The notes below the pieces were generated by a model that searched no databases, was not told the origin of the DNA, and was given only the letters and a program-made list of their open reading frames with translations. A stretch of 64,000 bases of DNA from an uncultured Gammaproteobacteria bacterium (GTDB taxonomy: Bacteria; Patescibacteriota; Microgenomatia; UBA10105; UBA927). Positions 8,907 to 55,501 of this stretch are shown here, in pieces (the first letter of the stretch is position 1; each line of letters opens with the position of its first letter). Location of the stretch: contig CAZUOM010000007.1 in NCBI GenBank assembly GCA_964621305.1, positions 5,422 through 69,421 of the forward strand, in the 5' to 3' direction. The position numbers and the translations under genes were made by a program.

Positions 8907-9766
8907 AGTGTTACTTATGTCGCTGCCAAATGCAGACATTTATTAAAAAAAATGGTTACGAAATTTGGGATTGTCCTAATTGCGGCTTTAAGTCGACGGA
9001 TTTACACCAGGATTATAAGATTTTTGTTCAGAAATTTTATTCTCAGGAATATTTTACAGGCGATCCGACACGAGGTGCTTACTTTGATTACAAAAGAGAC
9101 AAACCCTACATAGTTCGAAACATGAAGAAAGTTCTTACAAAAATTAAGCTATATAAAAGAGGTGGCCGTTTGTTAGACGTTGGTTGTGCAATGGGATTTT
9201 TTGTCGAGCTAGCTTTGGATGCTGGATTTGACGCGTATGGCATAGACCCTTCACATTATGCAATTTCAAATCGCGCCGAAAATCTTAACGGAAGGCTGCA
9301 GATGGGAACAGTTGATACTATCCGTTTTGCCGCTAAATCTTTTGACGTGATTACCATGCTTGATGTCATCGAGCACTTACCAGATCCGAGAAGAGTTCTA
9401 AAGAAAGCACTTACTCTTCTTAAAGACGACGGAATTGTTGTCATCGCAACCGGTGATACAGATAGTGTATATGCAAAAATCTTTAAGCGACGCTGGACGT
9501 TTTACAATCCGCCCCAACACTTACATTTCTTTTCGCGCAGAATTTTCCTTAAGTTCTTGCTAGAAACCGGATTCAAACCTTTGACAACATTTATTATCGG
9601 AAAATGGTTAAGCTTGAGGTACGTATTGCACTTGGCAAAAACAGGAGCAGAAAGCATTTTTGCTGGCAGGCTTTCTTATTTAGTTAAAAAAATCAGAATT
9701 GACTGGCTGCCCCTTTTTTTGCCGGCGCGCGACAACTTCGTCGTTATTGCCAGAAAGACAAAGTGA
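8903..9766 (+). CDS. Class I SAM-dependent methyltransferase with an N-terminal Cys4 zinc ribbon
   Basis: The zinc ribbon is C-x2-C...C-x2-C (CRCQ...CPNCG). Motif I is LLDVGCAMGFF, and DVITMLDVIEHL is also present. Confidence 0.8.
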   Translation: MKCYLCRCQMQTFIKKNGYEIWDCPNCGFKSTDLHQDYKIFVQKFYSQEYFTGDPTRGAYFDYKRDKPYIVRNMKKVLTKIKLYKRGGRLLDVGCAMGFFVELALDAGFDAYGIDPSHYAISNRAENLNGRLQMGTVDTIRFAAKSFDVITMLDVIEHLPDPRRVLKKALTLLKDDGIVVIATGDTDSVYAKIFKRRWTFYNPPQHLHFFSRRIFLKFLLETGFKPLTTFIIGKWLSLRYVLHLAKTGAESIFAGRLSYLVKKIRIDWLPLFLPARDNFVVIARKTK

Positions 9767-11757
9767 GAAAGTTTTTTCTTCCGCTACTTCTATGCGGAGC
9801 CGTTGTAACTATCGTTTTTGGAAAAGCATTGTTTCCGGCGCCTGATCAGCTTATTTTTGGCGACGACGTACACCGGCAATATTATTTTTTTCGCCAGTAT
9901 TTTAATAATTCGATTCGCGAAGGGGCAGTCCCGTGGTGGAACCCGTATGTTTTTTCCGGTACTCCTTTTTTGGCAAATGCTCAAGTTTCGATGCTCTATC
10001 CCCTTAACTGGCTGTATGTAATTTTACCTCTTAATATCGCCTACTCTTGGTATTTTGCCATTCATGTTTTTATTGCCATGGTAACCATGTATTGGTTAGC
10101 CAAAGCGATGATGGGTAAAATATGCGGTTGGACCGCAGGAATTGTATTTGGACTGTCCGGTTATTTTATGGCTCGCACGATGGCAGGACAACCGGATGTT
10201 GTGGCTGCTGCCTCTTGGGCGCCTTTGGTTATCGGACTATTTATTAAAGTTATCAATGAAAAGACAGTAAGATCGATACTTCTTGCGGCAGCCGGGTTGG
10301 CAGTGCAGCTTTCAACAGGTTATCAAATCGTTACGCTTTTTACCTTAGAAGCGGTCGCGATCATTGTTTTTATCAACATTATTAAAGAGAAATCTTTACG
10401 TATGGCTTTACCGGTTATTGGAGCAGTTGTTCTTGCGTTGGGTTTGGCGGCAGTCCAACTTTTGCCTCAGCAAGAATTTTTCCGGCATTCAATTAGAACC
10501 GTTGATTTACCTTATAAATTTACAGCTAGTGGCGCCCATTCCCTGCGTGAGATGGTTACCCTTATTGACCCTTTTGCGCTGGGGGGCTATAACGACTATC
10601 AAGGATCTCCTCCCAATTATCACGAGCACGCCATTTATGTAGGAAAAGTAGCCCTTATTTTGGCTATCCTCGCGTTTGTTCTAGGTAGAGCTAAACCTTT
10701 TACACTCATTGCACTTTTTAGCGTCTGGGTATCGTTTGGGGCGAATGCGCCGGTAGATTTGCAATATCTTCTTTGGAAATTTACTCCGTTTTACCACTAC
10801 ATTCGTATCCCTTCCCGACACCTGGTTCTCTTTGTGTTAAGTGCCAGCATCCTTACCGGCTTTGGGTTGTCGCTTATTCGGAGTAGAGTAATCCAAATTT
10901 TTTTATCAGCAGTTATTATTCTTGAACTCGTGTTGGTTGGTCGAAATTTTATAGCTCTGGAAAAGTTACCAGAGTATCGGCATGATCAAGAACTTGTAAA
11001 CTTACTGAAATCAGATAGAGAGCTTTCTCGGGTTATCCAAAATTTTGGCGTGTGGGTGGTGCCGCGTGATAGGTTAGATTTTGGCAGCGCGATGAATTAT
11101 AAATTCTTTTCTGCAACCGGCTATGACCCATCGATTTTACGTAATTACTATGAATTTATAGACGCGGCTAATGGTGCTAAAGAGCCTAGCGTTATGAAGC
11201 ACAACGTGCAAGTTCCTTACTTAAACCCCAATTCTCCATACCTTAATTTTCTCAACATTAAATATGTTCTAGTGAACCCTGATTATGATCCGTTTGGAGG
11301 AAAATCAACTGATAGATTTAAATTAATCCTTGATAAAAAAGAAAAAACGTACAGGCTCTATGAAAATAAAGCCGTCCTTCCGCGATTCTTTTTATCAGAC
11401 TGCGGTGATACGGTTTCGGAACCGGTTGAAGTTAACAAATACTCAGGCAGTCAAATTGAACTAACTTCGAGTGCGACCTGTGATACAAAGCTTATATCAA
11501 GCGAAGTAATGTATCCTGGCTGGGAGGCAGCTATCGATGGCAGAAAGACCGCGGTATTAGCAACAAATCATGCGTTTCGATCGCTTCTAGTCCCGAAAGG
11601 CAGGCATAGCATAAAATTTTATTTTTTCCCACGAATTTACATCATTGGCGGTGTAATTTCTTTAGTGACTTTTCTAATTTGTTTACTTTTTTGGCACAAA
11701 GATAAAGAGGCCCGGGTTTTCATGGAAAACCTCAAGAAACGGATAAAATCTGTTTAG
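9763..11757 (+). CDS. YfhO-family membrane protein (GT-C type glycosyltransferase, 664 aa)
   Basis: It carries the canonical YfhO N-terminal signature (VHRQYYFFRQYF...GAVPWWNPYVFSGTPFLANAQVSMLYPLNW) and about 14 TM helices. Confidence 0.85.
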   Translation: MRKFFLPLLLCGAVVTIVFGKALFPAPDQLIFGDDVHRQYYFFRQYFNNSIREGAVPWWNPYVFSGTPFLANAQVSMLYPLNWLYVILPLNIAYSWYFAIHVFIAMVTMYWLAKAMMGKICGWTAGIVFGLSGYFMARTMAGQPDVVAAASWAPLVIGLFIKVINEKTVRSILLAAAGLAVQLSTGYQIVTLFTLEAVAIIVFINIIKEKSLRMALPVIGAVVLALGLAAVQLLPQQEFFRHSIRTVDLPYKFTASGAHSLREMVTLIDPFALGGYNDYQGSPPNYHEHAIYVGKVALILAILAFVLGRAKPFTLIALFSVWVSFGANAPVDLQYLLWKFTPFYHYIRIPSRHLVLFVLSASILTGFGLSLIRSRVIQIFLSAVIILELVLVGRNFIALEKLPEYRHDQELVNLLKSDRELSRVIQNFGVWVVPRDRLDFGSAMNYKFFSATGYDPSILRNYYEFIDAANGAKEPSVMKHNVQVPYLNPNSPYLNFLNIKYVLVNPDYDPFGGKSTDRFKLILDKKEKTYRLYENKAVLPRFFLSDCGDTVSEPVEVNKYSGSQIELTSSATCDTKLISSEVMYPGWEAAIDGRKTAVLATNHAFRSLLVPKGRHSIKFYFFPRIYIIGGVISLVTFLICLLFWHKDKEARVFMENLKKRIKSV

Positions 11758-13245
11758 ATCATTTGGCCCGTCTTGTTTATTCCAAAGAATATAACCAATG
11801 TTGTTTTTGGTCAGAAACTCTTGGGCTTGACCTTCCTTCATGAATCCAGAGTAAAAATCAAAAACCTCTTTAACTTTGCGATCGTAATCGTAGGTTAGGG
11901 TTCTATGTGCTGAATAGGTAGTAAGACCCGTGATAACCGGTACAAAAAATTCCAAATTATTTGTAGCCAAAACCACTCGATAGTCCTGCTTGTCTTTAAG
12001 GGAGGCCAACCCTTTATAAATGTCTTTATTTAAATAATTGAGCGGTGATGGAAGGTAATAAGAGGAAATTTTTTCTTTTAACTCTATTGCCAGGGGCGGC
12101 AGCTGTAGAAGAAAAAATCCTGCGAGTATTCCCGCGGCAACCCAAGCACGTAAGTTTTTTTTAAACAAGTTTCCAATAGCAATAACACCGAGATAGCTCA
12201 TTGCTCCAAGAAATACATATGCTGGAGGCTGTAAAAAGCGAAACACCGGCAGCTTAAAGAGAGCGGGAAGTGTAGAAAAATAAATTAGTATTGGAGCAAA
12301 AGCAAATAGACCGCCAAAAATTCTAAGTGGTGATTTTACTGAAAAAAAGGATTTTAATCCAACAAAGACTAGTGGCACTACGGCTCCCATCGAAAGAAGG
12401 AGAGTTAACGGCGCAACCGGAGCAAAACTAGTTTCCCATGAGCGCATCCACTGATAGAAAAAATGGGAAAAAGCCTGTTTCTCATGGATGACAATAGGAA
12501 GAGCAGTTGCCAAACTAAATAAAAGGGGAGTAAATAATTTTAGATTACCAAAATATACTAACCCTAAAAATATTACCAATGTATCGACTAGGAAATAAAC
12601 TGGAGCAATAATAAATAGAAACGTGAATGATAAAACTATTAAAACAGTCCATTTCCAAACAGGGGACTGGATAAATTGACTATATGTGTAGATAACTAGT
12701 AGCGAGAGAATATTTTGGGCGATCAAATGAGAAACTCCACCCAGACGGTTAAAAGCTGTTGTGTACGCATAAAAATAGGTTATGGGAGTTATTGCCGGCG
12801 GATTTGTTGATATGGTAAAAAAATTTGTACTCACCAGCGCAATTAGGAGACTAATTATGGCTCTCACCTTATTGTTTAGGAATAATGCTTGCAGTACTAA
12901 ATACATAAGGATAATGTAAAGGAAGCTCAAAATAACAACGCTAGCATCATAAACAAGCCAGGGGTATAGACCTGTAAGGCCAACAATTTTTCCGAGTATT
13001 ATGTTGTACCACCAAATCAAAGTCTGAGGGATAGCCTCGGTTGTAAATGAATTGCCAGTGAGCCACGCGCCCATTGCGCCCTGAGTTAAATGTGAAAGAT
13101 AAAAAAAGTAGTCCTCATACCAATGGGTGATTCCGATGTAGATTGTATTTACCGGCTGTTGTATCTTATAGACGATAAGCGCTAGGGAGTTAAGCATGGT
13201 GAATATTAGTGAGATAATCAAAACCAGAATCATAGATAGAGTCAT
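11683..13245 (-). CDS. Polytopic membrane protein of the YfhO-distant paralog family
   Basis: The N-terminus (THWYEDYFFYLSHLTQGAMGAWL) is a clear paralog of the ORF at 31594-33102. The C-terminal family domain is VVLATNNLEFFVPVITGLTTYSAH. Confidence 0.6.
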   Translation of the reverse strand: MTLSMILVLIISLIFTMLNSLALIVYKIQQPVNTIYIGITHWYEDYFFYLSHLTQGAMGAWLTGNSFTTEAIPQTLIWWYNIILGKIVGLTGLYPWLVYDASVVILSFLYIILMYLVLQALFLNNKVRAIISLLIALVSTNFFTISTNPPAITPITYFYAYTTAFNRLGGVSHLIAQNILSLLVIYTYSQFIQSPVWKWTVLIVLSFTFLFIIAPVYFLVDTLVIFLGLVYFGNLKLFTPLLFSLATALPIVIHEKQAFSHFFYQWMRSWETSFAPVAPLTLLLSMGAVVPLVFVGLKSFFSVKSPLRIFGGLFAFAPILIYFSTLPALFKLPVFRFLQPPAYVFLGAMSYLGVIAIGNLFKKNLRAWVAAGILAGFFLLQLPPLAIELKEKISSYYLPSPLNYLNKDIYKGLASLKDKQDYRVVLATNNLEFFVPVITGLTTYSAHRTLTYDYDRKVKEVFDFYSGFMKEGQAQEFLTKNNIGYILWNKQDGPNDLNRFYPFLEVFHENPGLFIFVPKK

Positions 13246-13248
13246 TAT

Positions 13249-15921
13249 ATGAGATATTCAAAGCTTATTGCTCTTTGTTCTTATGCGGTCATCGTCGTTA
13301 TTGTTTTTTCTCCTATTCTTTTTCCGCCGGCAGGTATGTTGTTATTCGGCAGTGATATCCACAGATCCTATCATTTTTTCCGGCAACTATTTCATGACTC
13401 TATTAGTACAGGACAATTTCCGTGGTGGAATCCGTACCTTTTTTCCGGAGAGCCACTAATCGCTAACCCCTCGGTTGCATTCTGGTACCCATTCAACTGG
13501 CTGTTTGCAGTTCTTCCGTACAGATTTGTTTACTCGTGGATTATTCCGATTCATATTTTTATTGCAATGACGGGAATGTACGTTTTTAGTTCAAAATTCA
13601 AAATTCAAAATTCAAAATTAGAAGAAAAGGTAGAAACACCATTTGATTTTGGTGCTTTTATTGCCGGTTTAATCTTTGGATTAAGTGGGTATTTCATGGG
13701 AAGGATTTGGGAAGGACATGTGGAGCTAATTCTTGCGGCAAGCTGGATGCCGTGGGTTATATTTACAAATGTCCAATGCCAAATGTCCAATGCCAAATGG
13801 AAAACACAATGTGTTATCGCAGCAGTTGTGTTTGCCATACAGCTTTATGCCGGGTATCACACCATTGCCTTATTTACACTAGAAGCGGTGTTAATTGTTA
13901 CATTGTTACACTGTTACATTGTTAAAAACATTAGGCCGCTTTTGCCGGCGATACTCTCTATAATCATTGGGTTAGGTTTGGCTGGACTTCAGATTATTCC
14001 CTCTCAGGAGTTTTTTAGTCGAAGCATTCGGACGTATGAACTTCCTTATTCATGGGCTGTCTTCGGTTCATACACGGTTGAAAACCTCAAGCAGATTTTT
14101 CAGCCGTTTATTCTGGGTGGGCCAGAGAGCTACAGCGGTCCAAGTCCCAATTTCGGTGAAATGGCGGCATACATCGGTGTTGTCCCGTTGGTGCTTGCTC
14201 TTCTTGGTATTGTGTGGGCAATAAAGCGCCGCGCGTGGATTTCAATTGCCATGATGGTTATTGCACTTTTTGGGTTATGGATTTCATTCGGTTGGAATGC
14301 TCCCGTGGATCTGAATAAAATCCTTTGGGACAGTGTCCCTACATATAAGTATCTGCGCATTCCGTCGCGGCACCTCATTCTTTTTGTTTTCGGTATGAGC
14401 TTCCTCGCCGGCGTCGGCCTTAGCTTCGCAAGGAGAGTCCTTGCGAAGCTAATTATTTCTCTGGTTATTGTTGTTGATCTGGTGTGGTTTGCTAAAACGT
14501 TTGTTACTCTTGCGCCCGATCCTTCCACACGGCACAGTAAAGAGCTTGTTGGTTATCTGCAAAAAAATTTGGGACTGGCGAGAATTTTGCCGAACTTTAA
14601 TGTCGGGATGGGAACGCGAGACGCTCTCGATTTCGATGCAGCAATGGGGTATAAATTTTTTTCCGCTTCCGGTTACGACCCGTCGATTCTGCGTAATTAC
14701 TACGAATTTGCGGCAGCCGCAGGGAAAATAGAAAACCCGGATGTCCAGCGAAGTGACGTTCAAATTCCATATCTAGTTCCCCAGTCTAGATACACTGACT
14801 TTCTTAATATCAAATATATTTTTGTTCCGTCGTGGTTTGACTCAGTTGCGGGATCATCAAAATTTTCTCCGGTGCTGGCAGAAAATATAAAAGATTTCTG
14901 GAAACTCTATGAAAATAAAAACATCTTTCCTCGGTTCTTTCTTGCGCCGTCGCTTGTAGTTTTCCCGACTCGAGACGGTGTTGCCCGGGCAATAAGAAAC
15001 GAGGATTATAATCCATCGGAGACAATATTGGTTGAAAGTTCAAGTATCAAAAATCAAAGTTTTTCACCAAGCTGTTTAGAAAAAAACCTTCCTCCTCCCG
15101 AAGTGCTTTCCTATTCTTACAATCGGATCGAGCTACTTACAAGTTCCTCATGTAATGCCTTTCTGGCAACTAGTGAGGTGATGTATCCCGGCTGGAGTGC
15201 AACTATTGACGGGAAAAAAACAGAGATTTTCGAGGGAAACCTTGCCTTTCGAACGCTCTGGGTGCCGGCGGGGGAACACAACATTGTTTTACAATATCAA
15301 CCCTGGATTTTTGTCGTAGGTTTTTTCGTGAGCATTGCGACAGTGGCAGGGTGTTTGATTTGGACCAAAAAGTCGGCACACAGTGTATTGGTGGTTCTGG
15401 ATCGGGACGGAACACTTATCAGAAACGAAGGATTTATTGGACGTGGAGACAAATGGATGAGTGAACTTGTCATTAATGCGCCTGTAGTGTGTTTTCTTTC
15501 TTATATACAATCCAAATATAAAACGATGATGATAGTTGTTAGCAATCAATCGGGCGTGGCCAGAGGGTATTTTGACGAAAAGCGAATCCGTGAGGTCAAC
15601 GAAGCAATCAATGAGCTTTTGAAAAAACAAGGCATTACCATAGATGGTTGGCAGTTTTGTCCGGATGTGGATGCGGTCTACGCGAAGGCTCGGCCCGAAA
15701 TTTTTTGGAACAAGCAGTACGTGAAAACGGCGACGAAACGAAAACCAGCAACCAAAATGGTTGACGACGCGCTTGGGCAACTTGGCAAAAAGATCGGAGA
15801 TTTTGACACGACGATTGTTTTAGGCAATAGCGAAGATGACGCGGAACTTGCCCGGGTCCTTGGCGCTGTCTGGATTGATGTCCGTGGGGCTAGCTATGAG
15901 AAGCTTGTTGCGTATCTATGA
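13249..15921 (+). CDS. YfhO-family membrane protein fused to a C-terminal GmhB-like HAD-IIIA phosphatase domain
   Basis: The N-terminal ~690 aa form a YfhO domain (HRSYHFFRQLF...FPWWNPYLFSGEPLIANPS). The C-terminus carries DRDGTLI, VVSNQSGVARGYF and ..CPD.., typical of D,D-heptose-1,7-bisphosphate / histidinol phosphatase HADs. The gene contains three short tandem repeat tracts. Confidence 0.8.
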   Translation: MRYSKLIALCSYAVIVVIVFSPILFPPAGMLLFGSDIHRSYHFFRQLFHDSISTGQFPWWNPYLFSGEPLIANPSVAFWYPFNWLFAVLPYRFVYSWIIPIHIFIAMTGMYVFSSKFKIQNSKLEEKVETPFDFGAFIAGLIFGLSGYFMGRIWEGHVELILAASWMPWVIFTNVQCQMSNAKWKTQCVIAAVVFAIQLYAGYHTIALFTLEAVLIVTLLHCYIVKNIRPLLPAILSIIIGLGLAGLQIIPSQEFFSRSIRTYELPYSWAVFGSYTVENLKQIFQPFILGGPESYSGPSPNFGEMAAYIGVVPLVLALLGIVWAIKRRAWISIAMMVIALFGLWISFGWNAPVDLNKILWDSVPTYKYLRIPSRHLILFVFGMSFLAGVGLSFARRVLAKLIISLVIVVDLVWFAKTFVTLAPDPSTRHSKELVGYLQKNLGLARILPNFNVGMGTRDALDFDAAMGYKFFSASGYDPSILRNYYEFAAAAGKIENPDVQRSDVQIPYLVPQSRYTDFLNIKYIFVPSWFDSVAGSSKFSPVLAENIKDFWKLYENKNIFPRFFLAPSLVVFPTRDGVARAIRNEDYNPSETILVESSSIKNQSFSPSCLEKNLPPPEVLSYSYNRIELLTSSSCNAFLATSEVMYPGWSATIDGKKTEIFEGNLAFRTLWVPAGEHNIVLQYQPWIFVVGFFVSIATVAGCLIWTKKSAHSVLVVLDRDGTLIRNEGFIGRGDKWMSELVINAPVVCFLSYIQSKYKTMMIVVSNQSGVARGYFDEKRIREVNEAINELLKKQGITIDGWQFCPDVDAVYAKARPEIFWNKQYVKTATKRKPATKMVDDALGQLGKKIGDFDTTIVLGNSEDDAELARVLGAVWIDVRGASYEKLVAYL
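13591..13618. repeat. (TCAAAAT)x4 heptanucleotide tandem repeat inside the YfhO-HAD gene
   Basis: Read directly from the sequence: ttcaaaattcaaaattcaaaatta. Confidence 0.9.
13768..13801. repeat. 14-nt unit (AAATGTCCAATGCC) x2.4, built from two imperfect heptamers, inside the YfhO-HAD gene
   Basis: Read directly from the sequence: aaatgtccaatgccaaatgtccaatgccaaatgg. Confidence 0.9.
13894..13925. repeat. (ATTGTTAC)x4 octanucleotide tandem repeat inside the YfhO-HAD gene
   Basis: Read directly from the sequence: attgttacattgttacactgttacattgttaa. Confidence 0.85.
15337..15921 (+). other. HAD-IIIA (GmhB/histidinol-phosphatase-like) phosphatase domain at the C-terminus of the YfhO fusion
   Basis: Motif I is DRDGT, motif II is SNQSG, and the Zn-site-like region is QFCPD. 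The domain follows the last TM helix, so it is predicted to be cytoplasmic. Confidence 0.7.
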
Positions 15922-18107
15922 AACTCCTCTTTCCGTTTTTGGCCTACGCAGTCGTCGTTCTTTTTGTATTTGATAAGGCATTGTATCCGAGTCAGAACGA
16001 AGTTATCTTCGGCCCGGATATCTGGCGATACCACTATTTTCAGCGTCCGTTCCTGGGCGAGTCGTTTCGAAGTGGCATCGTCCCATGGTGGAACCCGTAT
16101 ATCATGGGCGGTCAGCCATATCTGGAGCAGCCGCAGATTACGACGTGGTATTTACCAAACCTACTCTTTACGATCTTGCCAGCAAACAGGGCCATTTCTT
16201 GGTACTTGGCCCTTCATATTTTCTGGGCGATGGCGGGGATATACTTATTCATTTCAAATTTCAAATTTCAAATTTCAAATTTAGCTGCGTGGGCGGCAGG
16301 GATTGCATTTGGTCTGTCGGGGTATTTTGCTGCACGGATCTACGCCGGACACATTGACATAATTGCGGCATCAAGTTGGTTGCCGTGGGTGATCGCTTCG
16401 GTTGTCAGTTGTCAGGCGTCAGTTGTCAGTAGAAAAAGAAATTGTGTTATTACGGCAATATTTTTTGCCATGATGCTGTTGGCCGGGCATCAGATGGTAG
16501 CCGTGTACACGGTTGAGGCAATTGGGGTAGCGGCATTGGTTTATGCAGTTGTCCAACGGTCGCTCCGGCCACTTGTGATTTCAACCGTTTCCATCGCATT
16601 GGGTTTGGGCCTTGCGGCAATTCAGATTCTCCCCAATCATCAGCTCATTGCCAACAGCATCCGGACGATTCAACTGCCGGAAGCATGGTCCGTCATCGCC
16701 ACCCCAACCGCCGCGCACTTTCTTGAGTTTATCGACCCAACGTTCTTCTACGACCGACTGCCTGATGTAGGCTTGGGACACGAACACGTCGGCTACATCG
16801 GGAAAGTGCCTTTGTTGTTTGCAATCACCACAATCCTCTTTTTCTTTCTCCGGCGGAAAAAATCTGTTGAAATTTTGATCCTTATCATCCTGTCAATATT
16901 CAGCTTGTGGGTGTGGCTCGGACCAAACGCTCCGGTTGATATGTTTGCCGTCATGCGAAAAATCCTGCCGCTCTATGGACAGATCCGGATCCCGTCCCGG
17001 CATATTGTGTTGTTTATTTTGGCGGCAAGTGCCTTGTTTGGCATCGGGATGAGCAGGGTAAAAAACACCGTCGTCAGGCTGCTGCTTTGTGCGCTGGTGC
17101 TTCTTGATCTTATTCCGTTTGCGCGGGCAAATATCCATTTGGGTCAGATACCGGAAACACGGGAAGATGGGGAATTGGTCGCATTGCTTGCGGGTGATGA
17201 GGGATTATACCGGTTCCTGCCGGATTTTTACCATGGGCAACCGTTGCGGGACGCGTTGGAGTTTGATGCTCCGATAACCAAGCGCATATTCTCCGTTTCC
17301 GGCTACGAAACGCCGCCACTGCGAAACTATTGGGAGTTTTTGTTGGCAGTCAACAACCTGGATATTGCAAAAAACCTAGATTATATTGAAACGACACCAC
17401 CGTTTATAAATATTACTTCACCGTATCTAAATTTTCTTAACGTCAAATACATTCTTACTCCCACCGGGAGTGATTCTTTAGATGCATACCCTCGTCAATT
17501 TTCCCAAATAAAAGAGAATAAAGATCGTGGATATCGGGTTTATGAAAATAAAGAGGTTTTGCCGAGATTTTATTTTGTGCAAAATGCGGTTGTTGCTGCG
17601 CGGGCTACCATTGACGAAGCCATACGCGGGGGGAGCGGCGATCCCGGGACGATGGTCTATTTGGAACAGGAAACGATGCCTATCCCACGGCCGTGTTCGC
17701 AGACCACGACCCCAACAGTATCCGTAACAACCTATCAATCCGACCGGATTCTGTTGCAAATATCCAATCCGTGCGATTCGTATCTGGTTTCATCAGAAGT
17801 CATGTATCCCGGGTGGATGGCAACCATTGACGGGAAGGAAACAAAAATTGCGGTAGGCAATCTCGCGTTCCGGACGATCTTCGTGCCGGCTGGAGACCAT
17901 ATAGTCCAAATGCAGTATCGCCCCCGCATCGTGTACCTCGGTGCGCTCGTAAGTTTGGTTAGTCTTGTTGTTTTTTTCTGGTTGATCTATGATGACGGTC
18001 ATGGAATCGCAGTCAGGAAAAGTTTGCACACTTCGTCAGCTGGGCACAATCACCCAGCGTCTGAAGAAAGCCGGAAAAAAGATTGTTCTTTGCCATGGAG
18101 TGTTTGA
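15918..18107 (+). CDS. YfhO-family membrane protein (third tandem paralog)
   Basis: It carries the signature IWRYHYFQRPF...GIVPWWNPYIMGGQPYLEQPQITTWYLPN. It contains heptamer repeat tracts at 16254-16281 and 16401-16430. Its 3' end overlaps the next gene by about 118 nt. Confidence 0.8.
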   Translation: MKLLFPFLAYAVVVLFVFDKALYPSQNEVIFGPDIWRYHYFQRPFLGESFRSGIVPWWNPYIMGGQPYLEQPQITTWYLPNLLFTILPANRAISWYLALHIFWAMAGIYLFISNFKFQISNLAAWAAGIAFGLSGYFAARIYAGHIDIIAASSWLPWVIASVVSCQASVVSRKRNCVITAIFFAMMLLAGHQMVAVYTVEAIGVAALVYAVVQRSLRPLVISTVSIALGLGLAAIQILPNHQLIANSIRTIQLPEAWSVIATPTAAHFLEFIDPTFFYDRLPDVGLGHEHVGYIGKVPLLFAITTILFFFLRRKKSVEILILIILSIFSLWVWLGPNAPVDMFAVMRKILPLYGQIRIPSRHIVLFILAASALFGIGMSRVKNTVVRLLLCALVLLDLIPFARANIHLGQIPETREDGELVALLAGDEGLYRFLPDFYHGQPLRDALEFDAPITKRIFSVSGYETPPLRNYWEFLLAVNNLDIAKNLDYIETTPPFINITSPYLNFLNVKYILTPTGSDSLDAYPRQFSQIKENKDRGYRVYENKEVLPRFYFVQNAVVAARATIDEAIRGGSGDPGTMVYLEQETMPIPRPCSQTTTPTVSVTTYQSDRILLQISNPCDSYLVSSEVMYPGWMATIDGKETKIAVGNLAFRTIFVPAGDHIVQMQYRPRIVYLGALVSLVSLVVFFWLIYDDGHGIAVRKSLHTSSAGHNHPASEESRKKDCSLPWSV
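16254..16281. repeat. (TCAAATT)x4, i.e. a TTCAAAT heptamer tract, inside the third YfhO gene
   Basis: Read directly from the sequence: atttcaaatttcaaatttcaaatttcaaattt. It encodes ISNFKFQISN. Confidence 0.9.
16401..16430. repeat. (GTTGTCA)x4 heptamer tract (one imperfect copy) inside the third YfhO gene
   Basis: Read directly from the sequence: gttgtcagttgtcaggcgtcagttgtcagt. Confidence 0.85.
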
Positions 18108-28863: not shown

Positions 28864-30095
28864 AGCGCAATGCTCCCGTCGTATTCTTCGGATTGTTTTG
28901 TATAGGCGTTGTTTTCCGACTCTGGTTTGTCTCGCTTGTTACTCAGCCATTTGTATATGACCAGGAGGAGTACTATGGATATGCCCTCGGAATACTCAAA
29001 AACGGCCTTCACGCGGATCTCTATCGGCTCTACGGGTACCCGCTGATCATAACACCGCTCATTTATTTCTTCGGCGTGACAAGTCCGCTGCCGTGGACAA
29101 TTTTTCATGCGATCCTTGACACGACGACGGCATTTTTGGTCTTTTGGATAGGGAAAAAGTTGTTTCACAGTGAGAAACCTGCGTGGATTGCTTTTATTCT
29201 CTATCTCTTTAATCCGTTTACTGCAGGCTACGTAGGGGTTTTATTAAGCGAGATCATAGCGATTTTTTTTACAGCCTTGATTTTTGTCTTTTTTTTAGTG
29301 GATGCCGAGAAGCCTCGACTTCTCACCGGCAGTTTTCTGGCTTTCTTATTAGGCTACTACGTCCAGATTAAACCGGGATTTTTGTGGTTTAGCCTTATTG
29401 CCTTAGCCGTAGTTGTGATAAGGAGGATTAGAATAGTAGCCGTGATGATGGTTCTTTTTCTTCTTCCTTTTTCATATAATCTCGTCGGTAACTGGAAGGC
29501 GTTTGGGGAAGTTAACCCCATGATGGTTGACCGTGTGTTTGCGCGGGAGCTTTACACAAGTCTATTTATTGGCCGGGGACTCGCATTTACCGATACGCAG
29601 TTTGGAGTGTGGCCGCAGGAAGCATACGAGGTTTGGAATGAGCTCTCACGCCCAAAAAATGCGCGCGAGCGTGATACTGTTGCAAAAAAATATATTGATT
29701 CGGCGCTAGCCAAAATTAAAAGCGATCCGGTCTGGTTTATCCGGACCAGGATAGCAAAGATGGGATACGTATGGGAAAAACATTTTGTCTTTCCGTATGC
29801 TCAAGGCAAGAGCGGTGATTTAACTAAAAGCGTAATATACTGGGGAAATCTGGCGATTCTGGGATTGGCAATAGTAGGATTTGTTAGATGGATAAGAGGG
29901 ACAAGAGGGATTAGGGGCATCGGGTCTCTGGTGATACTCCTCGTGGTTTATATTTCCGCTGTACACGCTTTTTCCACATCAGAGGAGCGGTTTTCGCTGC
30001 CGGCGTATCCCATGGTTTTTCTGTTTGCCGGATATGGACTGTGGTTGGTTGGGAGAAGCAAGCTGTTTAAGGCCGCTGTCATAGATAAACGTTAG
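28860..30095 (+). CDS. ArnT/PMT-like GT-C membrane glycosyltransferase
   Basis: The loop 1 motif is YDQEEYYGYALGI and YLFNPFTAGY is conserved. It is a paralog of the gene at 25327-26490. It carries a 9-nt in-frame repeat at 29902-29937. Confidence 0.6.
   Translation: MKRNAPVVFFGLFCIGVVFRLWFVSLVTQPFVYDQEEYYGYALGILKNGLHADLYRLYGYPLIITPLIYFFGVTSPLPWTIFHAILDTTTAFLVFWIGKKLFHSEKPAWIAFILYLFNPFTAGYVGVLLSEIIAIFFTALIFVFFLVDAEKPRLLTGSFLAFLLGYYVQIKPGFLWFSLIALAVVVIRRIRIVAVMMVLFLLPFSYNLVGNWKAFGEVNPMMVDRVFARELYTSLFIGRGLAFTDTQFGVWPQEAYEVWNELSRPKNARERDTVAKKYIDSALAKIKSDPVWFIRTRIAKMGYVWEKHFVFPYAQGKSGDLTKSVIYWGNLAILGLAIVGFVRWIRGTRGIRGIGSLVILLVVYISAVHAFSTSEERFSLPAYPMVFLFAGYGLWLVGRSKLFKAAVIDKR
29902..29937. repeat. 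9-nt in-frame imperfect repeat x4 inside the GT-C gene at 28860-30095
   Basis: Read directly from the sequence: ataagagggacaagagggattaggggcatcgggtct. It encodes IRGTRGIRGIGS. Confidence 0.7.
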
Positions 30096-31604
30096 AGGAA
30101 CACCTTGAATGCTTACTGTGTAAATTGGTTGCCTGTTTTTCATGTATTCGGTAATTCCCCAGTAACGAGTAAAAAAAGATTCCCTGTTGAGAAGCACAAC
30201 GTAACTAGCTTCATCAAATCCCTTTTGGTTCACATGGGCGGTAAGATCCGGGCGCAAGTACTTGGCTGCTGCATCTGCCGCCATCACGATATGGACGTAG
30301 CTATCCTTTGGAGCGTTAGCGTTTAGCCAGCGGATAGCTTGCTTTTGAGAGGTGCCCCAGTACTCGACATCAAATTTGTGCCAGGCGCCGCGGATTCCAC
30401 CCACTAGCTCGTTGAAGTAGGAGATTTGGTAAGGGTGATAGGAGGTAATCTGTAAAATTAAGTAACCGAATATTCCCAACGTAATTATAGCTAAGAAAGG
30501 CTTTTTCACATTGTTAAATTGTTTCATTGTTAAATTGTTAAAAAATCGAAACGCATTTGCGGTGCCAACTGCCGCAATCGCCGCCAGCGGAAAAACTACT
30601 TCTTCAAAGTGGCGGATGCCGTCGATGACGCCGATCTTGGGGTTGAGATAGCGAATAAGAGGAATGAAAAACCAAAAGAGAAGTAGAGAGGCGACGGGTT
30701 TTTGTCTGATTTGCCTAATTAGTCTAATTAGTCCAATTAGGAAAAAAACCAAGACGGGAACAGGCGTCGTAACCGCCAAGTACCCGAAAGGGTAATGCCA
30801 GGGGACGTTGACGCCGGATTTGTAGATGTTGCCAAAATAGAGGACTTCTAGGTTTTGAGTGTTGTCTAGAAAAAATCGGAACATGTAGGTGAGCCGTTCG
30901 ATTGGATTGGGCCACAAGGGGAGCCAGAGGAGGAGAGCGGCGGCTGGCGCCAGAAGAAAGTATAGTAAGAAGAAAATCTTTTTCTTATCTATTATCCAAG
31001 CGCCGGTTATCACTGGCACAAAAAGAGTATTGACCTTAGTGTTGAAGGCGATTGCAAATGAGAGGCAGGCGAGAACTAGATCTTTGACGCGTTTGTACTT
31101 TACCAGTCTCCAAAAAGCGTAGATAGCTAGAGCAAATGCCGCCGCTTGTGGAACATCCTTCATGTTGTTGTGGAGGTCGCCGAAGTAGCGAGGCAAAAGC
31201 GCGAGAAACGTAAATCCAGCAAGAGCAGTTAGAAAGCCAAATGATTCTAAAAGGAATAAATAGAGTACAAAAATTCCGATTACGCCTGAAACGATTATGG
31301 ACAAGTGATAGGCGTTGTCAAATGGGAGAATCTTGAATTTTTCAAAAAAAAGTTGGTTCGTTGCCGCTGGACCAATCACCATCAGGGGCCCAAAAGGCAA
31401 ATCGTAAGTGCCGCGGGGGTCCGGTATGGTGAAGGGAATATTTTTGGTGAGTTCTTCTTTGACCGGAATCCCCAAGTGCCAGAGCCCTGCAAAAAAGTGA
31501 TGGTGGAAGTCCCACGTGACGCCGTAGTCGTCAATAATCACCAGATGTACAACTAGTAAAAGTATAGTAAGAGCTATTCCTATTTTTACGTGTTTACTTT
31601 TCAT
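29979..31604 (-). CDS. ArnT/PMT_2-like GT-C membrane glycosyltransferase
   Basis: It starts TWDFHHHFFAG... and contains AYHLSIIVSGVIGIF...LPRYFGDLHNNMKDVPQAAAFALA. It carries repeat tracts at 30508-30539 and 30715-30741. It overlaps the convergent gene by 117 nt. Confidence 0.65.
   Translation of the reverse strand: MKSKHVKIGIALTILLLVVHLVIIDDYGVTWDFHHHFFAGLWHLGIPVKEELTKNIPFTIPDPRGTYDLPFGPLMVIGPAATNQLFFEKFKILPFDNAYHLSIIVSGVIGIFVLYLFLLESFGFLTALAGFTFLALLPRYFGDLHNNMKDVPQAAAFALAIYAFWRLVKYKRVKDLVLACLSFAIAFNTKVNTLFVPVITGAWIIDKKKIFFLLYFLLAPAAALLLWLPLWPNPIERLTYMFRFFLDNTQNLEVLYFGNIYKSGVNVPWHYPFGYLAVTTPVPVLVFFLIGLIRLIRQIRQKPVASLLLFWFFIPLIRYLNPKIGVIDGIRHFEEVVFPLAAIAAVGTANAFRFFNNLTMKQFNNVKKPFLAIITLGIFGYLILQITSYHPYQISYFNELVGGIRGAWHKFDVEYWGTSQKQAIRWLNANAPKDSYVHIVMAADAAAKYLRPDLTAHVNQKGFDEASYVVLLNRESFFTRYWGITEYMKNRQPIYTVSIQGVPLTFIYDSGLKQLASPNQPQSISGKQKNHGIRRQRKPLL
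30508..30539. repeat. 16-nt unit x2 (CATTGTTAAATTGTT[T/A]), two octamers related to the 13894 tract, inside the GT-C gene at 29979-31604
   Basis: Read directly from the sequence: cattgttaaattgtttcattgttaaattgtta. Confidence 0.8.
30715..30741. repeat. 9-nt in-frame repeat x3 (CTAATTAGT) inside the GT-C gene at 29979-31604
   Basis: Read directly from the sequence: ctaattagtctaattagtccaattagg. It encodes LIGLIRLIRQ on the minus strand. Confidence 0.8.
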
Positions 31605-33102
31605 AGATTGTGACCGTTTGTGCGCCGTAAAGTTCTTTAAGAAAATTATATTTTAGTTGGAATTGAGACTTATCTCCGTCAAAATTAGTGAAGAAAATAT
31701 ACTTTATGTTTTGGCGGGCAAGCCACTGGCGTGCTTGGTCAGAAGTCATATTTTTGGCGAAAAATTTTGAGGATATTGCTTTTTTTTCATTGCTACTGAT
31801 CGTTGCAAACGCGTGGCCGGTGTAGCTAGTATGCCCGCTTAGGGCGGGGACTATGGAATCCATGTGGGTAGCTGGACTGGCAAGAACCACGTCACTTAAA
31901 GGGCTTAAGGAGCTTAAGTAGGTAAAACCATCATAGATTTCTCGCGGTAGGTACAAGAGGGGTATTCGCTCATGGGGTCTGACAACTAGTTTTTGTTGGA
32001 TTTCCCAGTATAAGGTAGGAAGGGTGAGAAGAAAAAAGATAGATAAAAGAATAATTTGAAATTTGAAATTTGAAATTTTAAATTTAAGTCCCTCTACGGC
32101 GAGCGCCCCCCAGAAGACGTAGAGAGCGGGGAACAGAACCCGGCTGTTGGAGACGCCGAGAAATTTAGGAATTGGTGAAAAGAAAAGAAGGTAACAAATG
32201 ATTAAAAGGACAGCGCCAAAAGTCATAATTGGTTTAGGCTTTAGGAATATGGAGCGTAACCCTAAAACTCCTAAAATAACTATCGGTCCTATCGATAGCA
32301 TCATAAAAAGCCCAGTTGTAGCGACCTGCTGACCGGCCTCCCAAAGTTTGGATTGGATATGGGGTTGGGTATTAGTGAGGCTGTTGTAATAGAGGGCAAC
32401 GATAAGAAAAACTACGGAAACTAAAAAATTTCCCCGGCCGGTTATCCACGACGTGAGGAGAAATAGCCCTGACACTACTGGGTTGAGTGTTGTAAGAAGG
32501 GTGATCAAGACAGTTGAGAAAATCAATTTTCTTTTTTGAATAAAAAACCATACGTAAACGAGGAGCAAAAACAAAAGCGTTTGCACTAGCTGGTGTGGAA
32601 CGGCACCTAAGCGGTCGAATGCAAGGTTGGGAGTTTTCCAAAGCAGAAATGGATACCACATGAATGTGCCGTCAACCCAGATGCGGTTCATAAAAGATGT
32701 AGCTGTTGTGGTAAAAAAAAATGCAATGAGAGCTTTTGACTTATTGTTATTAAATACGGATTGCATGAGTTGATAGGTGAAAAATAGTATGGTAAAAGAT
32801 AGAAGAAATACTGAGAGGTTGTATGACCATTGCGGTGCCAACCCGCCGGCTCCACCCAATTTCCCCAAAAGGATATTCGGCCAAAACATGATGCTTGGAC
32901 TGATTGCCTCGGTCGTGTATCTGTTTGCCGTCAGCCACGCCCCATGAGCAGCCTGAGTAAAGTGGTTAAGATAGAAAAAATAATCTTCATAATAGTGAGT
33001 GGTACCCAGGTAGACTTCTCCTGGTTTTGTGTTAATGACACCGGAAAAAAAGTTGATGGAGTTGAGGGATGAAAGAAACAGAATGAAAAAGAGAACAATC
33101 AT
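31594..33102 (-). CDS. Polytopic membrane protein of the YfhO-distant paralog family
   Basis: The N-terminus (THYYEDYFFYLNHFTQAAHGAWL) and C-terminus (VVLASPATHMDSIVPALSGHTSYTGH) match the family. A heptamer repeat lies at 32053-32086. Confidence 0.6.
   Translation of the reverse strand: MIVLFFILFLSSLNSINFFSGVINTKPGEVYLGTTHYYEDYFFYLNHFTQAAHGAWLTANRYTTEAISPSIMFWPNILLGKLGGAGGLAPQWSYNLSVFLLSFTILFFTYQLMQSVFNNNKSKALIAFFFTTTATSFMNRIWVDGTFMWYPFLLWKTPNLAFDRLGAVPHQLVQTLLFLLLVYVWFFIQKRKLIFSTVLITLLTTLNPVVSGLFLLTSWITGRGNFLVSVVFLIVALYYNSLTNTQPHIQSKLWEAGQQVATTGLFMMLSIGPIVILGVLGLRSIFLKPKPIMTFGAVLLIICYLLFFSPIPKFLGVSNSRVLFPALYVFWGALAVEGLKFKISNFKFQIILLSIFFLLTLPTLYWEIQQKLVVRPHERIPLLYLPREIYDGFTYLSSLSPLSDVVLASPATHMDSIVPALSGHTSYTGHAFATISSNEKKAISSKFFAKNMTSDQARQWLARQNIKYIFFTNFDGDKSQFQLKYNFLKELYGAQTVTIYEK
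32053..32086. repeat. (AATTTGA)x~4.7, the reverse complement of the TCAAATT heptamer tract, inside the membrane gene at 31594-33102
   Basis: Read directly from the sequence: aatttgaaatttgaaatttgaaattttaaattta. It encodes KFKISNFKFQI on the minus strand. Confidence 0.9.
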
Positions 33103-39315: not shown

Positions 39316-39350
39316 ATTAGGATACTGATTACTTGCCCCAACAAACCTCA

Positions 39351-40364
39351 ATGCGGCCGTTTCTTTCTCTTATCATCCCATATCACAATAGTGAGGCCAC
39401 GATTGGCAGGCTGATTACATCTATTTCTAAATCTAAGCGAGCGCCGTCATACGAGGTAATAATAGTTGACGATTGGTCGAAAGAAAAGTGCAAAGTGCAA
39501 AGTGCAAAGTGCAAAGTTATTCGCCTAAAAGCCAATCGTGGACCGGCGGTGGCGAGGAATAGGGGGGTGGCGGTTGCGAAGGGAAAGTTTATCTTGTTTC
39601 TCGATAGCGATGTAGAACTTTTCCCTGATACCCTCCATAACTTAGCTGTTATTTATCAGGAAGACCCGGATGTCGTTGCGGTAACTGGCGTTTGGGTCAA
39701 AGAGCAGAAAACGAAGGAATTTTTCTCCAATTTTAAGGCCCTGCGGGATTGGAGCTACTGGATCAATGAACGGGATAAAAGCGGGTACTACTTTCTCTTT
39801 TCGACACGAATTGCCTCTATTAAAAAAACCGTTTTTCAGCGCTTGGGCGGCTTTGATGAAACCTACCCGGCGCCGCTGGTTGAGGATATTGAGTTGACAT
39901 ACAGAATTGCCCGGCGATATGCGATCATATTCGCCCCTAATGTCCGCGTGCGGCATGAATTTGAAGGTTTCTGGCCGATTGCAAAAAAGTACTTTTTACG
40001 GGCTTACTACTGGACCAAACTTTATCAAAGAAGGAAGAAATTCGATCCGGTGGCAACAACGTGGCAAGAAGCATTGACGACCTTATCCGGTGTTGCTGTA
40101 GTCTTTTTTGGAGTCGTGAGTTTACTTGCAGCCATAAGCGTTCCCAGCATATCAAATATCAAATATCAAATATCAAATATGATTTGGGGAAAGGTTTTTC
40201 TGGGGGCACTGATTCTGCATGTTTTTCTCATCCGTAAGTTTTTGGTCTTTATGTATCGCGAAAAGGGTCTCTGGTTTGCCATGCGCGGGTTCTTTAGCGG
40301 GTTGGTTTTATACTGCTTCATTTTTGCCGGGGCACTGGCTGGGAAACTGAAATCAGGGAGATAG
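39351..40364 (+). CDS. Family 2 glycosyltransferase with C-terminal transmembrane helices
   Basis: Motifs include LSLIIPYHNSEATI, VIIVDD and DSDVELFP (DxD). It carries two heptamer repeat tracts at 39487-39519 and 40151-40180. Confidence 0.8.
   Translation: MRPFLSLIIPYHNSEATIGRLITSISKSKRAPSYEVIIVDDWSKEKCKVQSAKCKVIRLKANRGPAVARNRGVAVAKGKFILFLDSDVELFPDTLHNLAVIYQEDPDVVAVTGVWVKEQKTKEFFSNFKALRDWSYWINERDKSGYYFLFSTRIASIKKTVFQRLGGFDETYPAPLVEDIELTYRIARRYAIIFAPNVRVRHEFEGFWPIAKKYFLRAYYWTKLYQRRKKFDPVATTWQEALTTLSGVAVVFFGVVSLLAAISVPSISNIKYQISNMIWGKVFLGALILHVFLIRKFLVFMYREKGLWFAMRGFFSGLVLYCFIFAGALAGKLKSGR
39487..39519. repeat. (AAGTGCA)x4.7 heptamer tract inside the GT2 gene
   Basis: Read directly from the sequence: aagtgcaaagtgcaaagtgcaaagtgcaaagtt. 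Confidence 0.9.
40151..40180. repeat. (ATCAAAT)x4.3 heptamer tract inside the GT2 gene
   Basis: Read directly from the sequence: atcaaatatcaaatatcaaatatcaaatat. It encodes ISNIKYQISNM. Confidence 0.9.
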
Positions 40365-54322: not shown

Positions 54323-55501
54323 ATGAGGAAAACTTTGATTATCTGTTGTATAGCAATACTGACAGGGTTCATTATTGTCCACTCCTATCTACAGCGACGG
54401 CTTGGTGGCCAAAATTTCGACCGCCTCGCAATTAACATCCGAACCGCTTGTCAAAAAGAGCCTGTACGGGCGCTTTGTTATGACAGCGCGCTTCCAAAAC
54501 TTATGAACAATTTTTCGATGGAACAAATATTTGCGCTGGCCAAAGTTATACAAAAGCAGGACACTTCATACGCGTACTGTCACGTTTTAGGTCATAAACT
54601 TTCGACAATCGAAACAAGAAAAGACGTTGGTAAATGGAAAGATGTTATTACGCGCTGTCCATCCGGGGTCTGTTCCAACGGCTGCATCCACGGGGCGTTT
54701 CAGGAGCGTTTTCGGACGGAAACCCTTCCTGATAGTAAAATTGCCGAGATTGCTCCGGAGTTAGAAACCGTCTGTGAAGCACGCGGCTCGTGGACGCCGA
54801 CGGGCTTGGAAAAAGCAAGTTGCTATCATGCGCTCGGGCATCTTCTGATGTACATAACCGGCGCTGATGCGGCAAGGGTAGTAACACTCTGTGATCGGAT
54901 AGGAGATAAAGGGAATAACGGAGACTTTCGCAAGGTATGCTACGACGGGGCATTCATGCAGATCTTTCAACCTCTGGAGCCTGAGGACCGGGCGCTTATT
55001 ACCGGCAAAGTTATAACCAGACTGCAGCACTCGACATTTTGCAAGCGATTCCCCGGGCCAAAAAAAACCGCGTGTATCAGTGAAGGTTGGCCGCTTTACT
55101 TTGACGAGCTGCGGGAGCCCCAGGGGCTTATCAATATCTGTAGTCAGCTTTCAGGCACTAGCTTTGATTCTTGTATTGATTCGGTGCTTTATGTTCTAGT
55201 CGTTCAGTTCCAATTTCATTTGCCGTCGATTAGACAATACTGTATTGGTTTGCCGAAAAAGTTGGCGGGCCGCTGTTTTGCCATGACGGCAAGTAGACTC
55301 ATCGAAACCGATTACGACAACGTGGATACAGCGGTTGCTTGGTGCAAGGAAGCGACACTGGAGACAATAGATTCGTGTTTTTCGGAACTTGTAAAAGAAT
55401 CGGATTTTATTTTTCAGAAAGGGTCGGCAAATCTTTCTGAGTTCTGCGAGAAATTACCGGAACAATGGAGAGAAAGTTGTCTAGGTAAAAAGAGCAAATG
55501 A
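54323..55501 (+). CDS. Exported Cys/His-repeat protein, subfamily A
   Basis: The motifs are CHVLGHKLS, CSNGCIHGAF and CYHALGHLLMY. It is a close paralog of the gene at 46221. Confidence 0.6.
   Translation: MRKTLIICCIAILTGFIIVHSYLQRRLGGQNFDRLAINIRTACQKEPVRALCYDSALPKLMNNFSMEQIFALAKVIQKQDTSYAYCHVLGHKLSTIETRKDVGKWKDVITRCPSGVCSNGCIHGAFQERFRTETLPDSKIAEIAPELETVCEARGSWTPTGLEKASCYHALGHLLMYITGADAARVVTLCDRIGDKGNNGDFRKVCYDGAFMQIFQPLEPEDRALITGKVITRLQHSTFCKRFPGPKKTACISEGWPLYFDELREPQGLINICSQLSGTSFDSCIDSVLYVLVVQFQFHLPSIRQYCIGLPKKLAGRCFAMTASRLIETDYDNVDTAVAWCKEATLETIDSCFSELVKESDFIFQKGSANLSEFCEKLPEQWRESCLGKKSK

Follow-up and report, generated by a model that had tools for sequence, protein, structure and literature searches.

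An in-frame heptanucleotide tandem repeat in a predicted glycosyltransferase gene of an uncultured Patescibacteriota bacterium and its place among bacterial period-7 arrays

We analyzed a stretch of 64,000 nucleotides (nt) from the metagenome-assembled genome of a very small, uncultured groundwater bacterium (Candidatus Gottesmanbacteria) placed in the Patescibacteriota (assembly GCA_964621305.1, contig CAZUOM010000007.1, positions 5,422 to 69,421), referred to here as the window, with emphasis on a heptanucleotide tandem array inside gene 31594-33102, referred to as the host gene. All positions are given in window numbering, and CPR denotes the candidate phyla radiation. A glycan-synthesis cluster occupies the first 45 kb and contains approximately 11 genes of the GT-C glycosyltransferase type; these include four host-gene paralogs (the host gene counted; the other three are 11683-13245, 5725-7275 and 7275-8906), three YfhO genes and three PMT_2-like genes, and the cluster also contains GT2 enzymes, aminotransferases and epimerases. 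The array, its gene and the paralog used for comparison are:

31594 to 33102, minus strand: host gene, encoding a 502-amino-acid polytopic membrane protein with a predicted GT-C glycosyltransferase fold (AlphaFold2 model and Foldseek) and no Pfam match.
32053 to 32087, minus strand: heptanucleotide array of five units (TTAAATT, TAAAATT and three times TCAAATT), covering the third base of codon L339 and codons K340 to I350.
11683 to 13245, minus strand: paralog of the host gene (31.5% amino acid identity, by alignment), with the homologous loop and no repeat in it.

Read from 32087 to 32053 on the minus strand, the tract consists of TTAAATT TAAAATT TCAAATT TCAAATT TCAAATT, i.e., three perfect and two decayed units. 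The perfect period-7 run covers 26 nt (32053-32078; 3.7 copies), and Tandem Repeats Finder called the tract at 32053-32085 with 4.7 copies and 96% matches. Its head-to-tail 7-nt units in at least three copies (3.7 perfect, 4.7 to 5 with the decayed units) are those of a heptanucleotide simple sequence repeat (SSR). The unit is the same cyclic heptamer as in the tract at 16251-16282 in the YfhO gene 15918-18107, and the tract is in frame in open reading frame (ORF) 31594-33102, where it encodes KFKISNFKFQI (amino acids 340-350), as compared to ISNFKFQISNL for YfhO. The C is missing from two of the five units, one of these changes being synonymous (CTC to CTT) and the other replacing Q with K; the array in the host gene is therefore decaying. 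Only in the third unit is the C protected, as a change from C to A at this position gives an in-frame TAA.

These sequences confirm what an initial annotation, made from the DNA alone, had stated on the (TCAAATT)n tract on the host gene's minus strand, on the unit shared with a YfhO tract 16 kb away, on the two translations (ISNFKFQISN-type in YfhO), and on paralog 11683-13245, which has no repeat at the aligned position and reads ...IAIGNLFKKNLRAW... there. The two gene families, called unrelated in that annotation, are not wholly so, since the host gene has the predicted GT-C fold and YfhO proteins are, we assume, usually assigned to GT-C as well. The identical peptide does not provide added evidence. 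As the 7-nt unit is read in all three frames, any in-frame reading of a TCAAATT array yields a cyclic permutation of FKFQISN, and the same unit necessarily encodes the same cyclic peptide; the common coding orientation of both tracts is forced as well, because the complementary strand contains TGA.

The AlphaFold2 model of the host protein was built on 63 homologs and has a mean pLDDT (predicted local distance difference test) of 95.4. Foldseek comparison of this model against the PDB found GT-C structures only (STT3/PglB/AglB, DPY19, AftA/AftD and ArnT; E 1e-7 to 6e-4), and D40 is invariant in the host-protein family, corresponding to the conserved acidic residue in the first external loop of GT-C enzymes; the modeled structure identifies the host protein as a predicted GT-C glycosyltransferase. 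In the model, amino acids 340-345 form a loop between helices and amino acids 346-372 the last membrane helix, and the array covers the loop and the start of the helix. GT-C topology and the Lys-rich loop found in homologs suggest a cytoplasmic position of this loop. All 65 host-protein homologs are metagenomic, and those with names are Candidatus Gottesmanbacteria, Patescibacteria group or hypothetical protein entries. An identical host protein is encoded in independent assemblies, i.e., SBBN01000017.1 (GCA_005239695.1) and the Logan assembly of SRR6261452, and no near-identical variant of it was found among 5.8 billion proteins. The Logan contig adjoining the YfhO genes ends short of the YfhO arrays.

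The tract is located between the conserved motifs RVLFPA.Y.FWG and PTL.WE, a region in which orthologs differ greatly in length. The nearest homologs (62-66% identity) read FFLSKKK, YSLRKKI or FFIKKKF at the loop, their loop DNA is AT-rich, e.g., TTTTTCATAAAGAAAAAATTT, and the host gene is only 9-12 nt longer than these homologs in the loop; an AT-rich loop of this kind could seed the TCAAATT unit. In the same region, the L122 ortholog carries a (TATTCTY)5 array, the L127 ortholog a (TCGCTTA)5.4 array and the L124 ortholog a palindromic insert (loop DNA GTCATTCCCGCGCTAGGCGCGAGAATCCAG), and at least 11 further orthologs carry neither array nor insert. The orthologs show the independent gain, in the loop before the last membrane helix, of different heptamer arrays (TCAAATT, TATTCTY and TCGCTTA) and of a palindromic insert.

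Palindromic elements resembling repetitive extragenic palindromes (REP), in frame and with peptides such as VIPA..GIQ and IPAQGRND, were also observed in L124 and in the YfhO homologs P0073, P0097, P0106 and P0120; these inserts occupy the loops where other homologs bear heptamer arrays.

A scan of the window for perfect runs with at least three copies found five runs of period 7 and none for each other period from 2 to 15; the five runs start at 13590 (TTCAAAA), 16251 (ATTTCAA), 32053 (AATTTGA), 39485 (AAAGTGC) and 40149 (ATATCAA). A relaxed lag scan found five runs at lag 7, one at lag 8, and none at lags 4 to 6 and 9 to 12. None of 300 block shuffles of the window contained a perfect period-7 run, and TTCAAATTTCAAAT, with up to two mismatches, had 19 matches in the window as compared to 2.2 expected. 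The claim that these repeats exceed chance is thus borne out. No heptamer arrays were found in the 5.5 kb of source contig beyond the window start. In addition to the tract in the host gene, the window contains the following arrays:

16251 to 16282, plus strand: perfect (ATTTCAA)4.6 at site 1 of YfhO gene 15918-18107, encoding ISNFKFQISNL (repeat scan and translation).
16401 to 16430, plus strand: imperfect (GTTGTCA)4.3 at site 2 of YfhO gene 15918-18107, encoding VVSCQASVVS.
13590 to 13619, plus strand: perfect (TTCAAAA)4.3 at site 1 of YfhO paralog 13249-15921, in the codon register of 16251-16282, with one base different per unit.
13766 to 13799, plus strand: (CAAATGT/CCAATGC), a 14-nt superunit, at site 2 of YfhO paralog 13249-15921, in the register of 16401-16430.
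39485 to 39517, plus strand: perfect (AAAGTGC)4.7 in GT2 gene 39333-40364 (catalytic domain), encoding EKCKVQSAKCKV (repeat scan, Pfam and translation).
40149 to 40180, plus strand: perfect (ATATCAA)4.6 in GT2 gene 39333-40364 (C-terminal membrane part), encoding ISNIKYQISNM, one base from ATTTCAA.

Every period-7 array in the window is in frame inside an ORF, i.e., none has the intergenic location of the long SSRs described previously. All five perfect arrays are located in genes for membrane-bound glycosyltransferases, and the two perfect arrays in YfhO genes fall early in these genes (amino acids 112 and 114). As polytopic membrane proteins account for 35% of the coding bases in the window and the two YfhO arrays are not independent, the local enrichment in envelope genes is marginal.

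To define how widely the unit occurs, one genome per species was scanned for (TTCAAAT)3, which yielded at least 118 stretches, approximately 27 of them from CPR lineages. Non-CPR sources among the matches listed include Kuenenia, Pyrinomonadaceae and other Acidobacteriota, groundwater Nitrospirae, Bacteroidota, Verrucomicrobia, a Clostridia metagenome-assembled genome (MAG), Anabaena and others. Also among the matches listed, arrays were in frame in long ORFs for 17 of 27 CPR stretches vs. 25 of 92 elsewhere, and array length peaks at four units with an approximately sevenfold drop at five. A Pfam scan of 17 CPR and three other array-bearing proteins identified, among the CPR hosts, TatD, PfkB, LeuRS, a CobQ-type amidotransferase, GatA, RecJ, a pyridine-nucleotide oxidoreductase (Pyr_redox_2), RlmN, MetRS, FemAB, ArgRS and a pilin, and, among the non-CPR hosts, MurD, a radical-SAM protein and a methyltransferase; six of the 17 CPR proteins, including the Gottesmanbacteria membrane protein of L076, had no Pfam match. 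The proposal that envelope genes are targeted fails on these data, as the same array occurs in aminoacyl-tRNA synthetases, GatA, RlmN, RecJ and MurD; arrays across all gene classes are the very outcome that the initial annotation had named as refutation.

Period 7 also predominated in larger sequence sets. The 826 kb around the matches contained 174 period-7 arrays vs. 0 to 6 for each other period (4 to 12), with 54 of the 174 composed of non-TTCAAAT units (44 different units), and 206 kb of CPR loci contained 37 period-7 arrays (nine with other units) vs. 0 to 1 per other period; both of these sets had been picked for holding one TTCAAAT array. The additional units in the 206 kb include AAAATTC, AAATATC, AAAAATC and AAATACC and are located in soluble proteins. 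In 190 kb around host-gene orthologs from Gottesmanbacteria, five period-7 arrays were found, all in frame, along with 0 to 1 arrays of other periods. Overall, period 7 is in excess over other periods in the window and in the 190 kb and 206 kb sets.

Two further observations concern TTCAAAT arrays outside the CPR. In L005, L022, L030, L086, L096 and L100 (five labeled Kuenenia; L022 labeled Chitinophaga), (TTCAAAT)n is found inside a larger conserved element that is bounded by the inverted repeats ttaaccgcgtgggcaacgcc ... ggcccgctgggcacgcggttaa and resembles a small dispersed repeat with a heptamer-array core. Outside the CPR, TTCAAAT arrays also often occur in compound arrays of related heptamers (TTCAGAT, TTGAGAT, CTCAAAT and CTGAAAT), as in L007, L017, L020, L040, L093 and others (Planctomycetota, Bacteroidota, Lentisphaera), mostly outside long ORFs.

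As short-read metagenome assemblies can mis-resolve tandem repeats, an assembly artefact, or else coincidence, was considered as a source of the arrays. We regard this as extremely improbable, since the same host protein is present in the independent Logan assembly, the arrays keep reading frames, the shuffles gave none, and the same arrays are also carried, among the matches listed, by multi-megabase chromosome-scale records and named-strain records (L090, L102, L019 and L070).

Selection on the peptide would provide another explanation if proteins needed an ISNFKFQ-type segment, e.g., an interfacial or a positively charged cytoplasmic one. Related peptides do recur at two fixed YfhO sites and in several membrane proteins, and homologs of the host protein without the repeat have a Lys-rich loop. 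The arrays, however, are perfect at the DNA level, synonymous positions included, in genes that are approximately 50% identical, the same DNA is found in soluble enzymes and outside long ORFs, and most orthologs have no array, which makes selection on the peptide very improbable.

We also assessed whether the TTCAAAT unit is special. In viral contigs, (TTCAAAT)3 occurred in 39 stretches and the composition-matched (AATTATC)3 and (AATATTC)3 in 52 and 29, respectively; a role of TTCAAAT as a special motif was thus rejected, as composition-matched heptamers are about as common. Of 128 cyclic heptamers with six A/T, 42 are stop-free in three frames, and a C together with three or more A is found in 15 of these; AAATTTC, AAAATTC and AAATATC, which occur in the window, all belong to this usable set. 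We roughly estimate that, among three or four independent AT-rich arrays in the window, two would share a unit with a probability of 10-35%, i.e., fairly often. As stop avoidance leaves so few usable units, the identical unit represents weak evidence.

Searches for signs of insertion or structure were negative. Flanking direct repeats were found at none of the five window arrays, 116 arrays showed no excess of them over controls, and no conserved flank motif surrounds the TTCAAAT arrays among the matches listed; with neither a target-site duplication nor a target motif found, transposon-like insertion was rejected. Single-strand DNA folds of the arrays are weak (-1 to -5.6 kcal/mol) and mostly no better than those of shuffles, and DNA structure was therefore also rejected as a driver. 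No Rfam match was found in the window. The sequence A AAT TTC conforms to the slippery pattern of -1 frameshift sites, X XXY YYZ, with one in-phase occurrence every 21 nt (32053-32087 and 16251-16282); this match is probably a coincidence, because other units in the window, e.g., TTCAAAA and ATATCAA, do not fit the pattern. The common generating mechanism put forward in the initial annotation can be retained in the form of one period-7 process acting across loci; its targeted micro-insertion (the flanks, checked as had been suggested there, showed neither direct repeats nor a motif) and its reliance on the identical unit cannot.

Overall, these data lead us to favor, with moderate confidence, the reading that the tract is a heptanucleotide SSR tolerated in a permissive loop, and a member of a class of period-7 arrays, usually with three to five units, that is made by this lineage and by many bacteria. 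Such arrays would originate when replication slips or the template misaligns, with 7-nt steps being intrinsically preferred (as hypothesized by Mrazek, Guo and Shah 2007), and selection would keep those that preserve the frame, are stop-free in all three frames of the coding strand and lie in permissive loops. In AT-rich loops rich in Lys, Phe and Asn, this filter would leave approximately 15 C-A(n)-T(n)-type units, and with so few units left, the same unit and the FKFQISN peptide would recur in different genes without targeting. The host-gene array itself most probably serves no function.

Several observations weigh against this reading. Each single-unit slip is a frameshift, and stepwise growth within essential genes is thus hard to picture; the peak at four units with the sevenfold drop thereafter is also unlike a simple geometric slippage distribution. 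For both reasons, simple stepwise slippage does not provide a full account. Moreover, the 7-nt slippage preference is a published hypothesis rather than a demonstrated mechanism (PMC4692102, PMC4679880).

The persistence of arrays at fixed sites in YfhO genes and in RlmN counts on the same side. The adjacent YfhO paralogs are only 37% identical, yet two homologous sites in them carry arrays that match in length and codon register. The units of these arrays differ in every copy, by one base (TTCAAAA vs. TTCAAAT) at one site and by two bases (xAATGTC vs. xGTTGTC) at the other, a pattern resembling concerted evolution or conversion; a further YfhO paralog in the window (9763-11757) has neither array. 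Among 55 members of the YfhO family, both sites often show array-type peptides. An identical, perfect (AAATTTC)4.6 in the same codon register is found in window gene 15918-18107 and in P0083, P0112 and P0113 (array loci: window 16251-16282; L147 4433-4464 and 8991-9022; L148 526-559), i.e., in homologs with approximately 50% nucleotide and 35-43% amino acid identity, which a neutral SSR explains poorly. Identity among the YfhO homologs falls at the array edges, save between the two L147 paralogs, which are 96-100% identical over the array and approximately 50 nt downstream, as compared to 61% for the genes overall.

For RlmN, we compared 117 relatives (59-89% identity) of a protein from Moranbacteria (L065, a Moraniibacteriota MAG; P0165-P0284). 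Flanked by FW.QYLKK and NIVYMGMGEPF, the variable loop has a length of 11 to 59 amino acids; 28 relatives show array-like motifs, and ten have distinct, internally perfect 7-periodic peptides, e.g., NFKFQISNFKF, NSKFKIQNSKF, NQKLKTTNQKL and KSQISNLKSQI. Other relatives carry palindromic-repeat peptides such as PHPNPLLSKERG and QPQAGPPRAE; the loop is a hypervariable insertion hot spot in a conserved enzyme. Together, the YfhO and RlmN patterns point to ongoing homogenisation or repeated replacement: the arrays appear either to persist and evolve in concert or to be replaced repeatedly at the same permissive position.

One process that would produce such patterns is ectopic templating or gene conversion, in which another array of the same genome, e.g., the YfhO array 16 kb away, would have been the source of the host-gene array; template switching or short-patch recombination via AT-rich microhomology would then explain the identical unit. 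Consistent with this, two of the five arrays in 64 kb have identical units and two more are one-base variants, the L147 paralogs show the local stretch of near-identity described above, arrays are identical among homologs with flanks saturated by changes, and in GatA the array substitutes for the loop rather than being added to it. On the other hand, similarity of the host gene to the YfhO array stops at the array edges, the presence of two decayed units and of an ancestral loop rich in AT agrees with in situ growth, and, with few allowed units, identity is expected fairly often. In addition, dominance of AAATTTC is seen in no unbiased sample; it accounts for 0 of 5 perfect arrays (at least three copies) in the 190 kb of related loci. 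We therefore regard an ectopic origin of the array in the host gene as quite unlikely.

The arrays could also represent contingency loci, kept as hypermutable ON/OFF switches in which a change of one unit truncates a surface-glycan glycosyltransferase; the payoff may be varied cell-surface glycans, e.g., for phage escape or altered host attachment. The repeat does lie within an ORF with a unit length that is not a multiple of three, the five perfect window arrays share a single glycan cluster with its approximately 11 GT-C paralogs, two of them are placed early in YfhO genes, and perfect arrays recur at one site in deeply diverged YfhO homologs with unit changes in every copy, which implies turnover faster than point mutation. 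Heptanucleotide SSRs within ORFs are, moreover, known to be tied to frameshifts in Haemophilus influenzae, e.g., (AATTTTG)14 in hmw1A and (AACAACC)8-13 in a TonB-dependent receptor gene (PMC2651432). The arrays described here resemble these in having a 7-nt unit in the ORF of a surface-related gene, where a one-unit change would shift the frame, and differ in having 3.7 to 4.7 units as compared to 6 to 38 (PMC2651432), with neither length variation among strains nor an OFF allele seen. In the loci from Gottesmanbacteria and other CPR, all arrays examined were in the ON frame (approximately 40 in-ORF arrays, in consensus assemblies, which hide minority alleles). A frame analysis of 119 arrays for OFF alleles found eight cases with a different frame, none in CPR, and these looked like adjacent genes; a search with the YfhO N-terminus against 1.84 billion representative proteins found no truncated fragment of the OFF type. 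Unlike the H. influenzae SSRs, which reside in surface-related genes, the same arrays, with the same persistence at fixed sites, are also found in housekeeping genes (aminoacyl-tRNA synthetases, GatA and RlmN), in which an OFF state would be harmful; the arrays are thus not restricted to surface genes, and the array in the host gene is partly decayed. While these data make a switch unlikely, we would still give it some weight.

Among the candidates for OFF alleles, P0302 was considered as a fragment ending at the array and rejected, as it looks like a gene cut by the contig end. In the YfhO homologs P0084 and P0088 (the latter on a 42.8 kb contig), the gene calls begin exactly at array site 2, and these genes might be alleles frameshifted upstream.

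A broader possibility, which we put forward very tentatively and consider quite improbable, is that the heptamer arrays of CPR bacteria are actively renewed features of permissive loops rather than passive products of slippage; frequent slippage, ectopic conversion or a dedicated enzyme would maintain them over very long periods, perfect and at one codon position, and they would act as built-in mutable sites and, in glycosyltransferase genes, as low-frequency ON/OFF switches of glycans.

The favored reading, i.e., an SSR tolerated in a permissive loop, places the tract in a known class. Two publications report an excess of heptameric SSRs in bacteria, with units typical of the lineage, and the proposal that the polymerase prefers to slip by 7 nt (PMC4692102 and PMC4679880, both citing Mrazek, Guo and Shah 2007); examples of the units are GGGAATC in Xanthomonas, GGGGA(T/C)T in Nostoc, and TAACTGA in Beggiatoaceae, cyanobacteria and Bacteroidetes. 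The prokaryotic long SSRs with 7-nt units and the arrays analyzed here share head-to-tail units, few copies, a strong period-7 excess, the recurrence of related units in a lineage and the lack of an insertion footprint, with polymerase slippage as the only proposed mechanism. Conversely, the long SSRs described are overwhelmingly intergenic, whereas the CPR arrays are in frame in coding sequence at permissive loops, and some of them stay at the same codon position across deeply diverged homologs. The tract itself is an ordinary member of the known class; the in-frame, site-persistent behavior of such arrays in CPR proteins is a variant of it.

Two other repeat types were compared. Rickettsia palindromic elements are reportedly small, dispersed, palindromic repeats of 100-150 bp that occur in frame in protein-coding genes. 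Like these, the arrays are in-frame repeat DNA that conserved proteins tolerate at permissive sites on the surface or in loops, and in the families studied here the loops with arrays also carry palindromic inserts; unlike these, the array is a tandem repeat of 26-35 nt without palindromic arms and with weak predicted structure. The short tandemly repeated repetitive (STRR) sequences of heterocystous cyanobacteria are intergenic and have units such as CCCCAGT, TTGGTCA and CAACAGT; the tract differs from them in its host (Gottesmanbacteria), its units and its coding location, and is not an STRR sequence.

Other features of the window were also recorded. Tandem arrays with 8-nt units occur in frame in YfhO gene 13249-15921 ((TGTTACAT)4.6 at 13889-13924) and in the PMT_2 gene 29979-31604 ((ATTGTTAA)4.1 at 30510-30542); the Logan contig bearing the host gene ends at approximately position 30477, beside the latter. 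YfhO paralog 13249-15921 encodes 890 amino acids, and its extra C-terminal part of approximately 190 amino acids begins with VVLDRDGTL, which looks like a HAD/GmhB-type phosphatase motif; Pfam found YfhO alone in this protein at the threshold used. Between 46221 and 56700, eight successive ORFs on the same strand (376-772 amino acids) have no Pfam match and approximately one hydrophobic segment each; seven of the eight are mutually paralogous at 21-53% identity and 55498-56700 has no match, the group representing a tandem family with no function assigned.

Overall, the idea of a special device that writes one motif into envelope genes is removed and replaced by a period-7 process whose products are screened by frame, stop codons and loop tolerance. 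In the small proteomes of CPR bacteria, loops appear to vary commonly through in-frame heptamer arrays, also in housekeeping enzymes; we found no description of such arrays in this role in the searchable literature, and no paper that unites phase variation, Patescibacteria and tandem repeats. If the perfect arrays amid saturated flanks reflect active homogenisation, this would bear on how microsatellites persist in bacteria and, if true, also on a possible role of phase variation in the surface glycans of uncultured episymbionts.

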